A DNA stretch of 64,000 nucleotides from Eledone cirrhosa. Taxonomy: Eukaryota. The translations under genes and the position numbers were made by a program. Location: positions 2,666,001-2,730,000 of the forward strand of contig OZ024754.1 in the NCBI GenBank assembly GCA_964016885.1. The letters run 5' to 3'. Positions 2,776 to 62,980 of this stretch are shown here, piece by piece; position 1 is the first letter of the stretch, and each line of letters opens with the position of its first letter. Below the pieces are notes generated by a model. It saw nothing but the letters and a program-made list of their open reading frames with translations. It was not told the origin of the DNA and did not search any database.

Positions 2776-2916
2776 ATAGGAAAATGTTCAGGACCCCGAC
2801 GGCTTGAGCTCTGCCGTCAGGGTCCTGAACATTTTCCTATCACCCACTCTACTACCCAGTATGGTGTACTTTGGTGCGTTATCGTCCACCTGGTTACTTA
2901 CCACACTTCCTTCGTT
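2776..2916 (+). mobile_element. Foldback-plus-tail element, family M (Penelope-like non-autonomous)
   Basis: Arms 2776-2803 / 2813-2840, tail 2841-2916, flanked by (TA)n; related copies at 3091, 24121, 28559, 54817 and 61596. Confidence 0.7.
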
Positions 2917-2930
2917 ATATATATATATAT

Positions 2931-3030
2931 TTGGCACAAGGCCAGCAATTACTCAGTGTATTACTGGTACTTTATTTTATCGAACCCGTAAGGATGAAAG
3001 GCAAAGTTAACCTGGGCGGGATTTGAACTC
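2931..3030 (-). mobile_element. tRNA-derived SINE family S1, partial
   Basis: ggcacaaggccagcaatt...ttttatcgaacccgtaaggatgaaaggcaaagttaacc...gatttgaactc is shared with more than 10 copies. Confidence 0.85.
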
Positions 3031-3090
3031 ATGGTAGTCCAGCCCAATAGACCTTCACAAATATGCAGTAGATTATATATATATATATAT

Positions 3091-3198
3091 AACGAAGGAA
3101 GTGTGGTAAGGAAACAGGTGGACCATAACGCACCAGAGTACTCAATACTTAGGGTAGTAGAGTTGGTAATAGGAAAAGAGTCAGGACCCCGATGGCTG
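3091..3198 (-). mobile_element. Family M element, reverse copy (arm plus tail)
   Basis: Reverse-complement match to 2813-2916 and 28577-28675. Confidence 0.75.
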
Positions 3199-3786
3199 AA
3201 CGTGGTTTTTCTTCATCATGTGTGTACCACATACAATTATTCTACGCCATCTTGCATCACGTGTAACATCTAATAAATCTTGTTTTCATTCCTGAAAGTA
3301 GTCAGTGTCTCTTCAGATTGATACAGATACAGTGTATATATATATGGTGTGTGTGTATATATATATATATATATATATATATATATATATATATATATAT
3401 ATATATATATATATATATATATATACTGTATCTTTATATATATATATATATATGGATATATATATTATGGATATATATATATATATATACATATTTATAT
3501 ATATGTATATATATATATATACATATATATATATATATCTACATATATACATATATATATATATACACACATATATACATATATATATATATATGTATAC
3601 ATATATATACATATTTATATATATATATATATATATATATATATACACACACACACACCATATATTAAACTAAGGTTGTTCTTTAGATTTATTGTCATAG
3701 CTCTTATAGTTGTTATTTGTTCATGTTGTTATTGTTGTCGTCGTTGTTGTTATTGCTATTATTTTATGTGCAACAGCAGCAATATT

Positions 3787-4700
3787 AGTAGTAGTAGTAG
3801 TAGTAGTAGTAGTAGTAGTAGTGGTAGTAGTGGTGGTGGTGGTGGTGGTGGTTAGGGGTAGGTTTTACTGTTGTTTGTGAGTGTTGTTGTCGGTGGTGGT
3901 GGTGGTGGTGGTGGTGGTGGTGGTGGTGGTGGTGGTGGTGGTGGTGGTGGTGGTGTTCGCAGTGAGCTGTTTGTGATTAAGGTGGGGGGGGAGGGTTTAC
4001 ACATGTTTACCTTGATGTTATTGCTGCTGTTGTTCTTGTTATTGTAGTGGTTTTTGATGTTGTTGTTGATGATGATGATGATGATATAGGCGTTGTTGTT
4101 GTTGATATAATTGTTGTTGTTGTTGTTCTTGTTGTTGTTGTTGCTGTTGTTGTTGCTAATGATGTTCCTGATGTTATTGACCATGTTTGTAGATATGCTG
4201 GGCTGCTTGGCATGTTGTTCATGTTGTGATCGTGGTCGCAGTTTCTGTTGTTCTCTAAAAACGCTCACCTCCTCCATCTCCACCACACCACACCCCACAC
4301 CCCACTACCACCTCTCTCCACCACCACCCCTATCTTACCACCACCTCACCTCACTACCACCACCTCACCCCACTGCCACCACCTCCACCACACAACACCG
4401 CCCACCTCCACCTCCCTACCACCACCACCACACCACCACACCATCCAACTCCACCTAAAGCACACCCCCCCCCCCCACCACCACCACCACAACCTCCACC
4501 ACCTCCCCCCACACCACCACCACCACCACCACCACACCACCCACCTCCACCGAATGCACGCAACCACCACCACCACCTCACCTCACCACCACCACACCAC
4601 CCACCTCCACCGAAAGAACTCCACCCCACCACCACCACCTCACCACACCACCCACCTCCACCGAAAGCACCCCACCGCCGCCACCTCACCTCACAGCCAC
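3787..4700. repeat. (AGT)n/(GGT)n/(GTT)n followed by a CAC-rich low-complexity tract
   Basis: Visible directly. Confidence 0.85.
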
Positions 4701-5872
4701 AGTCACGTGTAAACCTGTATACTATATAGAATGTGCGCCAGTCCGGCGACTTCACATCAAAATTCAAACTCAGTGTGTGCATAAATATAGATAAACCGGC
4801 AGTATCAGAACATGTCATATCGTTTCATATCATTTAATATGAAGGTTTTGGTTTGGGGTGGGGGTTGTATTATTTGGAAATATATGTGTGTGTTTGGGTA
4901 AGCGTATGTGTGTGTGTGTGTGTTCAAATTTTATATATTCTTATATATATATATATATTTATATATATATATATATATATATATATATATATATATATAT
5001 ATATAAATGAAAGGTATAGAAAGTATTGTAGCAAGAAGCCAACAGTATTCCATAATATATATATATATATATATATATATATATATATATGCATATATAT
5101 TCATATATATATATATATATATATACATATGTATATATATATATATTATAATGGCTGTATGTTATTTTTTATTTCTCCTTCCCCAGTTCTTTTATTTTTT
5201 ATTTTATTTTATTTTATTACATATTTCTATTGTTTTCCTGTTTTTTTTTTTATTTTCGGCCATCTTTATTTGTGTTATTATTTTTAACCCCCTCTTTGTT
5301 GCTGTTGTTTCCGTTGATGTTGTTTTAAGTTAAGAGAGAGTCACTGAGGATTCCATGACGAGAAGTTAAAGACAGTCTCTAGTCTTATATGCCGGAAGCT
5401 ATGTGGAAATTTCGCAAAAGTTATACAACAAAACAGACAAGACAACAACAACAACAACAACAACAACAACAACAACAACAACAACAAAAGCAACACCAAC
5501 AGAAATAACAACACCAACAACAATAACAACGACAACAACAACACCAGCAACAGCAACACCGCCACCACCAACAACGACAACAATAACAAAAACAACAATA
5601 ACAACAATGGCGACGACGACGACAAGAAATAAAGTTATGGAAAGGCAAAAATCTATGTTTAAAATCTTTCTTTCAAATTTCTATATTTCTAACGAGAAAC
5701 AAGAAATATTGGGTATGGAAAATATTTGCTATGATTTCTTTGTTATTTTGATTGGAAATATAGAAGACAACACAAAAATAGATATTCCATGTTATAGAGG
5801 AATGGTTTTAATTGAAACAATGGAAATATTGCTACTACTATTACTGCTAATAATAATAATAATATTATATAT

Positions 5873-5931
5873 ATACAGGTTGTAACAAATAGAATCGTCC
5901 GATTTCAAAATTCTCTTTGATACACCCTGTA
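5873..5931. mobile_element. Tc1/mariner-type mini-MITE
   Basis: ta-caggttgtaacaaa ... tttgatacaccctg-ta terminal inverted repeats with TA flanks; related end tacagggtgtatcaaag at 7175. Confidence 0.55.
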
Positions 5932-60340: not shown

Positions 60341-61388
60341 CATTAGTAATAACTTGATACAAAGATGGACGCCTGAAACTGTCTTCGCAGTTTCTCAGTA
60401 TATATTTTTTCTCCAGTGTAAAATTGTAATCTTAACTACTACTACCCCCTCTCTCTCTCTCTATATATATATATATATATAGAGAGAGAGAGAGAGAGAG
60501 AGATGTATATATATATATATATACATATATATATGTATATATATATGTATATATATGTATATATATATATATATATATATATATATATGTATATATATAT
60601 ATATGTGTGTGTATATATATATATATATGTGTGTGTATATATATATATATATGTATATGTATATATATATATATGTATATGTATATATATATATGTATAT
60701 GTATATATATGTATATATATATATATATGCGTGTGTGTGTGTGTGTGTGTGTATATATATATATATGTGTGTGTTCAGCCATACAAGTAATAATGCTAGT
60801 TTATATAGTCTATACGAATTACCATACGGTGAATTGCTGTATACCACCAAATATATAATTTCTTTTTGACAGGGCATAAAAATATTTTTTATATAATGCC
60901 CCTGATCGATATTTCTATTAGATATAGCAATTTCTCGACGAGGCTTGACCAGTACTGTAGTTATATATGGTGAGTAGGAATAGTCCTATATTAGATTCTG
61001 TTATACTAATGTATATTATAATATCTGTATAGCCTTTTTTGTCCGTCTATCACATCACTATTACGATCTTCCAAAAAATATATATATATATATATATATA
61101 TATATATATATATGCAAAAGTTATATTTAATTTGTTGGGATTCAACAAGCTTAAAAAATGTTATAACTGATATAAAGCACGCAACAGATAACTGGAGTAA
61201 TTATTCAATATATTAATAAATGGAAACTATATTTATAAAACCATAATTATTTTATTATATATATTTCAAGGAGAACCAAGGCAAATTTTGGGGTGCTTTC
61301 ATGAGATAAAATACAAAATTTATTTTATAAATATATATATATAATTCCAAGCCGCCCGTCCCCTCAATGTATGTTATTTCTCATTCGT

Positions 61389-61424
61389 TCTTCTGATGAA
61401 GGACTAGCGTCCGAAACGTTAAGA
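61389..61424 (+). ncRNA. Minimal hammerhead motif of Penelope type
   Basis: tctt-CTGATGA-a-ggac-tagc-gtcc-GAAA-cg-TT-aaga, followed by about 85 nt and then (TA)n. Confidence 0.7.
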
Positions 61425-61595
61425 CCCTCTTCCTGCTATATCAAGCGTTAACCTAATATATCCCTTCCGTATACTGTACGGATTGTGTTATTATTTCTGT
61501 TTAACTTTTACATACATACATACATATATATATATATATATATATATATATATATATATATATATATATATATATATATATATATATATATATAT

Positions 61596-61653
61596 GAAAA
61601 AATTCAGAACCCCGACGGCTGAGCTCCGGCCGTTTCGACAACTAGATCCGAAC
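61596..61653 (-). mobile_element. Family M solo copy retaining the hammerhead 3' half
   Basis: Minus strand GAAA-cggc-cggagctca-gccg-TC-ggggttctga. Confidence 0.65.
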
Positions 61654-62719
61654 ATATATATATATATATATATATATATATATATATATATATATATATA
61701 TATATATATATATATATATGTATATGTATATGTGTGTGTGTGTGTGTCTGTGTATGCATTTGTGTATGTGTCTGTGTATGCATGTGTGTGTGTGTGTATG
61801 TACGTGGTGTGAGTGAGTGTATGTATGTGTTACATTTAAAGAGAGGTACATTTAAAACTAGGCAGGAACAATCAAGTCATGTCTAAACGCCATGATACAT
61901 TTACAGTTTTATAGTTTTACAGTTCTAAAGAAACTAAATACAAAGAAACCAACTCGAATTTTACTTAATAACAGGTTTAAATAACTTTCAGTCTAAAAAT
62001 AACATAATATCGTAACAAAACTTAAGTGACACTGAATGGTTGAGGGCGTGAGGGACTATAAGAGGAGGGGTAAAGGATGATAAGAACTTAACAAGGATAG
62101 AATAAACTGCAATATATCAATATCATACATACATTTACTATAAACACACCCGTGTATGTATACACACTGGTACGCATGCACGCACGCATATGAACTCACA
62201 AACAGAAAATCACACACAAACACACACGTAGGCACACACACACACACAAACATATATATGTGTGTGTGTGTGTGTGTGTGTGTGTGTGTGTGTGTGTGTG
62301 TGTGTGTGTGTGTGTGTGTGTGTGTGTGTGTGTGTGTGTGTGTATATGTGTGTGTGTTACGTAATTCCAAAGGAAAAGCAAAGGAAAAAAAGAGTGCTCT
62401 GTGTATAGAACAGTGTTATTTAATTGTTATGGATAGCATCTCTGTCTGACGAACGATCCAGACGTATATATTATTATCGTCTGTGATCCAGAAACCTTTG
62501 GTAATGGAGTAGTTATATTTTGTGTTGTTCAATATATATATATATATATATATATATATATATATATATATATATATATATATATATATATATATATATA
62601 TACTGTGGTTATTGTGGTTAACCCGATTCAACCAGGGATAAAGTTATATATCTATACTAGCAGTAAAACCCATGCTAGTCCCGTCAACTTATTATATATA
62701 TATATATTTATATATTTAT

Positions 62720-62838
62720 CCCGGGTTCAATCGGGGGTAACCACAGTAAGTTAGGTACTCAATACATATCAGAGTATAAATATCGAATATAGAAAAGGCT
62801 TCTACAGGACTAGAACTGTTTCATTCCGGAGAAATCAT
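62720..62838 (-). mobile_element. Family B reverse copy (arm plus tail)
   Basis: Matches the reverse complement of 29362-29480. Confidence 0.7.
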
Positions 62839-62843
62839 ATGTA

Positions 62844-62980
62844 TAGAAGTAGTTCCACAACAGTTAGTTTACCAAAACGAAAACAAGTGTTCCACCTGTT
62901 GTGGAACTACTTCTACAAAACTCGTCCCATGGACTGAGTGCTGTACTACTACGCATATAACCCTCCAGTGTTCTACTATT
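62844..62980 (+). mobile_element. Small foldback-plus-tail element
   Basis: 20-bp arms 62844-62863 / 62896-62915, tail with actc-gtcc-cat-ggac-t-gagt. Confidence 0.6.

Follow-up and report, generated by a model that had tools for sequence, protein, structure and literature searches.

Where a retroelement's copies begin and end, and what places those ends, is the question raised by a 64,000-nt stretch of DNA from Eledone cirrhosa (assembly GCA_964016885.1, contig OZ024754.1, positions 2,666,001 to 2,730,000 of the forward strand; here called the window), which carries many inserts made of a palindrome followed by a tail. An earlier note on this DNA had claimed that the tails of unrelated families all open with an ACTC..GAGT stem, and had suggested a structural cis-signal across divergent families, possibly an element that binds the reverse transcriptase (RT) and sets an initiation site just upstream. 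We consider it rather probable that this stem forms the basal part of a bulged hairpin that is conserved in Penelope-like elements (PLEs), most likely all of the Hydra clade, and that the hairpin serves as an RNA docking site for the RT-endonuclease, with cDNA synthesis starting about 6 nt 5′ of it. Three points go beyond what had been noted before: a rule for the bulge and the inner stem, a limitation to the Hydra clade, and another hairpin shortly after the end of the tail.

The window is animal DNA of 32% GC, dense in (TA)n. Self-BLAST of the masked window reveals palindromes with (TA)n at one side and a non-palindromic tail at the other, and hammerhead ribozyme cores sit in the tail-adjoining arm in the same sense as the tail. 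A core with stem II was found by script at 29359, which sets the RNA sense of family C as plus, and variant cores were recognised by eye in families D, E, F and I and in a further element with its hairpin at 61198. It has been described that a 5′-truncated PLE insertion consists of an inverted copy, a pseudo-long terminal repeat (pLTR) with a hammerhead and an optional tail (Craig 2021, PMC8557442; Arkhipova 2013). The window inserts show precisely this inverted, 5′-truncated copy with an optional tail at one end; they are the hammerhead-bearing 3′ ends of PLEs. They also combine a (TA)n target with a canonical hammerhead, as Hydra-clade elements do, and the families concerned are most likely all of that clade, with the limit that a (TA)n target is not exclusive to it, Neptune-type elements of the second genome described below also ending in (TA)n. 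An open reading frame (ORF) for RT and the GIY-YIG endonuclease is expected to be absent from such inserts because the copies are 5′-truncated. Pfam gave no RT or GIY-YIG match on 90 window ORFs, and it also missed genuine Hydra ORFs of the second genome. In Rfam, no gathering score was reached and no hammerhead family appeared among the best 150 of 437 window matches, which were mostly of the microsatellite-type microRNA kind.

The stems themselves are where they had been placed. The ACTC/GAGT pairs at 6259/6294, 6846/6867, 28602/28622, 34123/34145, 46281/46346 and 62920/62936 are all present, as are the variants at 53184 (..GAGC), 2846 (..GTGT) and, on the minus strand, 45862 of family E (GCTC..GAGT); the pair given as 29426/29440 exists with its ACTC one nucleotide earlier, at 29425. 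Every one of these stems stands after a palindrome found by self-BLAST. The exact ACTC..GAGT stem begins no more than 25 nt from the end of the arm in the tails of 8 of 11 families, and its one-base variants open 2 more. Among 1,500 dinucleotide shuffles, no 4-mer stem of the 256 possible exceeded 5 tails and ACTC itself never exceeded 2, so that the motif is enriched over composition-matched controls. The word "all" has to be given up: the tail of family G (45003-45507), which probably belongs to another PLE clade, has no stem, and a covariance-model search found no hairpin after the hammerheads at 61393 (+), 51673 (-), 63564 (-) and 11891 (-). The tail of the 51673/46464 family has a structure of its own, closed by TGAG..CTCA. 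That the families are unrelated is correct in the sense that no flank similarity is detectable in 44 of 45 pairs; the remaining pair is weakly similar, and all share PLE ancestry. The range of 4-20 nt given for the offset from the arm boundary was too loose; the actual offsets are tighter.

The full motif consists of RCTC, a variable inner stem, a 2-nt bulge on the 3′ side that begins with U, and GAGY-RCT. The inner-stem sequence differs from family to family, and family J has a bulge of only 1 nt. A strict two-strand scan of the window yields 9 matches, all of them in tails, against 1.8 in shuffled windows; one of the 9 is an element that the earlier note had not listed (family K, 8017, minus strand). 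The covariance model returns 12 window matches at E<=5, namely 10 known copies, the minus-strand element at 61198 and a hairpin-like match at 41978-42015 (E 0.012), the latter without hammerhead or (TA)n context.

A second genome was reached blind, through a pattern for the hammerhead only. Of 19 loci that this pattern found in GTDB, 10 are ordinary prokaryotic sequence and 9 come from one mis-binned animal assembly, G001 (record CBDDTI01; L025 and others), filed as a 12-Mb "bacterium" metagenome-assembled genome, whose fetched parts are animal, coral-like and rich in PLEs; its hammerhead matches that of Hydra-2_Amil. The tailed copies of G001 carry GCTC..GAGC-ACT, about 45-70 nt downstream of the hammerhead. 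Among 88 distinct hammerhead copies of 39 families in the fetched part, the hairpin follows the hammerhead in 7/7 families with a Hydra-type endonuclease upstream, in 0/10 Neptune- or Penelope-type families (one with mixed signal) and in 0/22 families to which no clade could be given. Some of the non-Hydra families may be represented here by tail-less copies only; one Neptune-type family shows both ends and no hairpin. The hairpin-bearing elements have a CxCX5C linker before a C-terminal GIY-YIG domain and neither CX2-5CxxC nor CCHH; CxCX5C is present and CX2-5CxxC absent in the endonuclease-bearing frames of L091-L093, L095, L096, L098 and L104. DKT occurs in L040/L091, RWK in L042 and L120, and RWR/NKT variants in L096, whose length of ~2.55 kb is within the Hydra limit of <3 kb. 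By these motifs, rather than by a reference tree, the hairpin-bearing ORFs of G001 are of the Hydra clade as Craig defined it.

The inner stem indicates that the structure itself is maintained. In 10 window and 11 G001 families, picked without regard to the inner stem, 59 of the 63 inner cells are paired in the register that leaves a 2-nt bulge (28/30 in the window, 31/33 in G001), against 35.1 after permutation, and none of 20,000 permutations reached 59; registers 0, 1 and 3 pair at chance level. In an alignment of 17 compact families (A1, scored by pair count), 98.2% of cells are paired and 24 cells have changed on both sides, a degree of pairing reached by 0/500 shuffles and by none of the slid controls, and CTC/GAG is invariant in 17/17. 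The outer pair in turn changes from A-U (window) to G-C, the form seen in G001 and in published coral and sea-cucumber consensi, and the proposal of a structural cis-signal shared by divergent families is thereby supported. In a sequencing run (X1) with 12,571 contigs aligned over 62602-62980, variants at >=5% fall in loop, spacer and flank, and none in the ACTC, bulge or GAGT of families C and J; the sole inner-stem variant (62769) is the majority letter and restores a pair.

The published record of the Hydra clade contains the same structure. Six consensi from Craig 2021 (PMC8557442) were read by eye: the coral consensus Hydra-2_Amil and the sea-cucumber consensus Hydra-2_Ajap each carry a hairpin with a G-C outer pair at the 3′ end, while Hydra-1_Ajap has two at its 5′ end, 61 nt apart, the consensus beginning 2 nt before the first. 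Hydra-1_Amil contains none; rather than having a degenerate motif, as a first reading had it, this consensus seems from comparison with the G001 copy L215 to stop at the inner site. Six 8-mers from the 3′ half of the motif occur at 22 places in the supplement covered, 3 of them Hydra hairpins and the other 19 without a hairpin, which is a partial test of Naiad and Chlamys that misses line breaks and other variants.

The hairpin copies lie a few nucleotides behind the ends of the element. The junction intervals relative to the hairpin are -8..-5 in family A, -4..-3 in B, -7..-4 in D, -8..-5 in I, -6..-4 in J and -8..-2 in E; for F and H, BLAST ends at -1 and -8, the script having halted at internal mismatches (-9, -17). 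In most window families the tail-less copies stop 3-8 nt short of the hairpin. G001 shows the same fixed spacing to an element end directly upstream: the tail-less copies of 7/11 families there run into microsatellite or AT-rich flank from -1..-6, mostly -5/-6 (last matching base). Tailed ends in G001 lie 53-60 nt past the hairpin start, a single value of 83 coming from a mis-placed start. The full-length copy L096 has the order (AT)n, hairpin 1, hairpin 2 (68 nt on), ATG, ORF (of the RWK/CxCX5C type, with the RWR/NKT variants), 3′ untranslated region (UTR), hammerhead, hairpin 1, tail end and (TA)n, which means that the tail repeats the first 60 nt of the element; hairpin 2 stands ~20 nt before the ATG, and tails of this family end 4-8 nt before hairpin 2. 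Similarly, in L151/L042 the tail-end sequence of families g3/g4 carries on for 5-8 nt until it meets a second hairpin, which directly precedes the ORF. Three full-length 5′ ends with a second hairpin are thus at hand, two of which also show the first copy, 61-68 nt upstream. The covariance model detects both second hairpins of G001, which were outside its training set (E 0.008 and 0.0003). A double-hairpin pattern gives 6 matches in G001, one being L096 and five known by pattern only. Only 3 Hydra N-termini are present in G001, and the third (L120/L303) has no upstream hairpin, an inverted junction standing there. Taken together, the geometry of inner and outer ends places both about 6 nt 5′ of a hairpin copy, and the junctions often share short A/T overlaps with the target. 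The 5′ end of L096 and solo tails (window 54816; L122, L060, L030 and L068) begin at or just before hairpin 1, which suggests that the inner site is in addition a favoured stop or 5′ boundary.

These observations can be connected in a model in which the template would be a tandem or circular transcript (...ORF, 3′UTR, hammerhead, hairpin 1, hairpin 2, ORF...). The RT-endonuclease, for whose Anolis counterpart a dimer has been predicted (Frangieh 2024, PMC11167929), would bind the hairpins, and nicked (TA)n target strands, annealed through 1-4 A/T bases immediately 5′ of a hairpin, would act as primers. A start at hairpin 2 would copy hairpin 1 and create the tailed end, a start at hairpin 1 would create the tail-less end, and the two cDNAs joined head-to-head would give a palindrome plus tail. 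With starts fixed by each hairpin, tail length would equal the spacing of the two, in line with in vitro work on Anolis Poseidon in which the tail corresponded to the interval separating two RT start sites (PMC11167929). Template recognition also fits the tail-less inserts, which contain no hairpin in their DNA and yet end at a fixed distance from it. In a more specific and tentative form of this model, to which we give somewhat less than even chances, tandem bulged RNA hairpins act as a ruler in cnidarians, echinoderms and the window's animal, each loading one subunit of a dimeric, telomerase-related RT and fixing a priming site ~6 nt upstream.

Several points weigh against RNA docking. Protein binding of the hairpin and priming at it, including the earlier idea of an RT-binding element, are likely but putative steps, and in the Anolis element RT initiation falls within a loop instead of ahead of a stem (PMC11167929). 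Compact hairpins are weak (-2.6 to -11 kcal/mol), and no more than about half of the window tails have the hairpin as their dominant fold (stem probability 0.84-1.0 in A, J and K, 0.59 in B, <=0.41 in C, D, E, F, H and I), so that a protein would be needed to stabilise it. Folding of the two-hairpin stretch of L096 does not surpass that of shuffled sequence (z +1.07). Energies for sense and antisense differ little, and there is not much evidence on the strand (4 G-U pairs vs 1 A-C). Families C (-20..-18) and K (~-11, by eye) are outliers in offset, the G001 copy L215 has no inner stem, and G001 families g3-g6 and g8/g9 are mutually related, so that pair counts overstate the number of independent events. 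The second hairpin is known from 2 G001 families and 1 published consensus. Among the published consensi, no hairpin is present in Hydra-1_Obim, and those of Hydra-1_Crog are degenerate. Finally, since the window families have no ORF, their clade is assigned indirectly.

Fixed offsets of this kind would be expected equally if the hairpins acted in DNA, that is, if the GIY-YIG endonuclease recognised them in single-stranded or extruded cDNA, cut ~6 nt upstream and trimmed the ends. This is the main rival to RNA docking, and has precedents: the tail has been ascribed to endonuclease-mediated resolution (Craig 2021, PMC8557442), earlier work cited by Frangieh (PMC11167929) found that the D. virilis tail is needed for endonuclease recognition of plasmid DNA, and site-specific single-strand nucleases of the GIY-YIG type exist (PMC11893778). 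Hairpin energies and wobble counts, moreover, do not separate RNA from single-stranded DNA. We nevertheless regard trimming as unlikely, because the ends of the Anolis PLE coincide with measured RT start sites (PMC11167929) and the junctions described here carry the short A/T overlaps with the target that priming predicts.

The beginning of L096 and of several solo tails (such as window 54816) at or just before hairpin 1, and the position of hairpin 2 ~20 nt before the L096 ATG, could instead mean that the hairpins define RNA ends or expression, through transcription start, RNA processing or translation start of the downstream ORF, with DNA ends merely following RNA ends. A promoter or translation signal would not, however, explain why inserts have their 3′ (priming) ends at two distinct hairpins, and the Anolis RT starts internally whatever the RNA 3′ end (PMC11167929); this explanation seems to us still less probable than trimming. 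As the motif is short and all families are of PLE descent, chance or passive inheritance from a common ancestor without any function has also to be weighed. It is already largely refuted, and we give it hardly any credence: flanks have diverged beyond recognition in 44/45 pairs while CTC/GAG is invariant in 17/17 and inner pairs change on both sides, the shuffle controls fall well below the observed counts, and the variants at >=5% in run X1 spare the ACTC, bulge and GAGT of families C and J while loop and spacer vary. RNA docking remains the preferred reading. The window copies are collected in the table.

Table. PLE copies and tail hairpins in the window (hairpin coordinates in the sense of the strand; inner stem given as 5′ side/3′ side).
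Feature	Position	Strand	Hairpin	Details
Family A insert	2779..2915	+	2846-2867	palindrome 2779-2837, tail 2838-2915; GAGT mutated to GTGT; model E 0.91
Family A, tailed copy	3092..3199	-	3163-3140	inner stem TACT/AGTA, bulge TT
Family A	28560..28673	+	28602-28625	palindrome 28560-28593, tail
Family A, solo tail	54816..54876	+		starts at hairpin (TCTC..TC..GAGT)
Family B	6006..6356	+	6259-6297	palindrome 6006-6254, tail; CAAG/CTTG, bulge TG
Family C	29308..29487	+	29425-29443	palindrome 29308-29404, hammerhead core 29359, tail
Family C, tailed copy	62716..62838	-	62775-62757	private change at 62769, absent from most X1 contigs
Family D	6516..6927	+	6846-6870	palindrome 6516-6838, hammerhead-like core in arm (by eye), tail; CAGT/ACTG, bulge TA
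Family D, solo arm	47582..47744	+		no tail; ends at inner site, -7..-4 before hairpin
Family E	45772..45993	-	45862-45813	palindrome 45871-45993, tail; GCTC..TC..GAGT
Family E, other copies	63274-63413; 6997, 24419, 29164			first tailed, others tail-less
Family F	33870..34210	+	34123-34148	palindrome 33870-34118, tail; CGG/CTG with G-U pair, bulge TT
Family G	45003..45568	+	absent	palindrome, tail; negative case
Family H	46090..46435	+	46281-46349	palindrome 46090-46273, long tail; enlarged interior
Family I	52555..53337	+	53184-53244	palindrome 52555-53175, tail; TGA/TCA, bulge TT, outer pair A-C mismatched
Family J	62844..62978	+	62920-62939	arms 62844-62863 and 62896-62915, tail; GTCC/GGAC, 1-nt bulge
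Family K	7957..8113	-	8017-7998	degenerate inverted arms ~8113-8028, tail to ~7957; TGT/GCA, bulge TA; not in the earlier note
Further element	61114..61310	-	61198-61179	decayed hammerhead-like core (by eye), tail ending in (TA)n; CAG/CTG, bulge TT, GAGT mutated to GCGT; model E 0.03, outside training set; not in the earlier note

Other sequences were encountered along the way. The family I sequence is present in sequencing runs of 17 organisms, with a small share only in 3, and no RNA dataset is among those listed as containing it. A minus-strand frame at 48806-49924 encodes a 358-aa gag/ORF1-like product with a decayed CCHC knuckle and no Pfam match; its look-alikes (Atlas, 0.91-0.92) have zf-CCHC, and it runs straight into a small family-A-like palindrome at (TA)n, possibly as a captured ORF or through a later insertion. 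The window also contains an old 460-nt palindrome at 23399-23857, with tRNA-like A/B boxes recognised by eye and no tail motif, and a very abundant, sometimes tandem 190-nt repeat resembling a short interspersed nuclear element (2931-3031, 27483-27672, 29918-30306, 37880-38243, 45585-45770, 59233-59411 and 60158-60345).

Wider pattern searches were also made and set aside. In G001, the pattern ACTC..GAGT-RCT occurs at control level (59 vs 63), with a repeated match in a palindromic repeat that has no hammerhead; L170, L173, L182 and L185 represent a high-copy palindromic repeat with an ACTC..GAGT-GCT core that is not a PLE tail. The window motif pattern has 0 matches in viral contigs, and its 3 metagenome matches were taken as chance, 2 lying amid prokaryote-like genes and 1 having neither hammerhead nor (TA)n. 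None of 18 matches of the hammerhead pattern in viral contigs is PLE-like; L010, L014, L015, L017 and L021 are hammerhead-like motifs of viral contigs with Hydra-type cores. A search of viral sequences with a Hydra protein returned no loci.

The RTs of PLEs form the sister group of telomerase. RNA elements that position an RT are familiar from the hepadnavirus epsilon, the telomerase template-boundary element, the 3′ stem-loops of LINEs (long interspersed nuclear elements) and of R2, and the twin priming of L1. The likeness lies in a bulged or boundary stem, bound by the RT, that fixes where copying starts or stops, and in two target strands that prime one insertion. No likeness in sequence to any of these is implied, and the present case differs in having two tandem copies, each located 3′ of its start site, and nicked (TA)n DNA as the proposed primer instead of a protein or a telomere.

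Among PLEs, the closest comparison is the Anolis Poseidon element PAc (PMC11167929), in which the tail also lies between two RT starts downstream of a hammerhead, a stem-loop is implicated and the target is AT-rich. PAc differs in that the start falls inside the loop of one AC-rich stem-loop, and the letters of Fig. S1 contain neither ACUC nor GAGU; the part of that study covered here describes no cross-family motif, covariation or second hairpin. The Hydra-clade PLEs of Craig 2021 (PMC8557442) share with the window inserts their short length, C-terminal endonuclease, canonical hammerheads, (TA)n targets, inverted 5′-truncated copy and optional tail, with tails of ~55-160 nt here vs 30-40 there; the word "hairpin" has 0 occurrences in the portion of the text covered. 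Like the minimal hammerheads of PLE pLTRs and non-LTR retrozymes (PMC4209133, PMC7229834, PMC7761336, bioRxiv 10.64898/2026.07.22.740005), those of the window sit in an arm, and tandem or circular templates have been proposed for both kinds; the hairpin is not part of the hammerhead. Animal retrozymes, as far as PMC7761336 was covered, show no conserved motif indicating a partner RT. No description of the hairpin was found in the literature surveyed, which took in parts of these papers and of PMC3846280 and had subscription journals and Repbase outside its scope. The elements are of a known kind, while the twin hairpin, specific to one clade, and its link with the two ends appear to be new.

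The 2024 in vitro study (PMC11167929) mapped two RT starts but, as far as its text was covered, did not identify what determines them. With a short, co-varying hairpin that is specific to one clade and lies ~6 nt behind each start, start-site control becomes directly testable; the hairpin also offers a minimal RNA for structural work and provides a sequence tag that places ORF-less PLE ends in the Hydra clade. If the hairpins are start signals, they would explain the long-puzzling tail. If the two-hairpin ruler is true, it would give PLEs their first defined RNA recognition code, would account for the tail together with the head-to-head palindromes, and would constitute a portable signal for internal, homology-free RT initiation.

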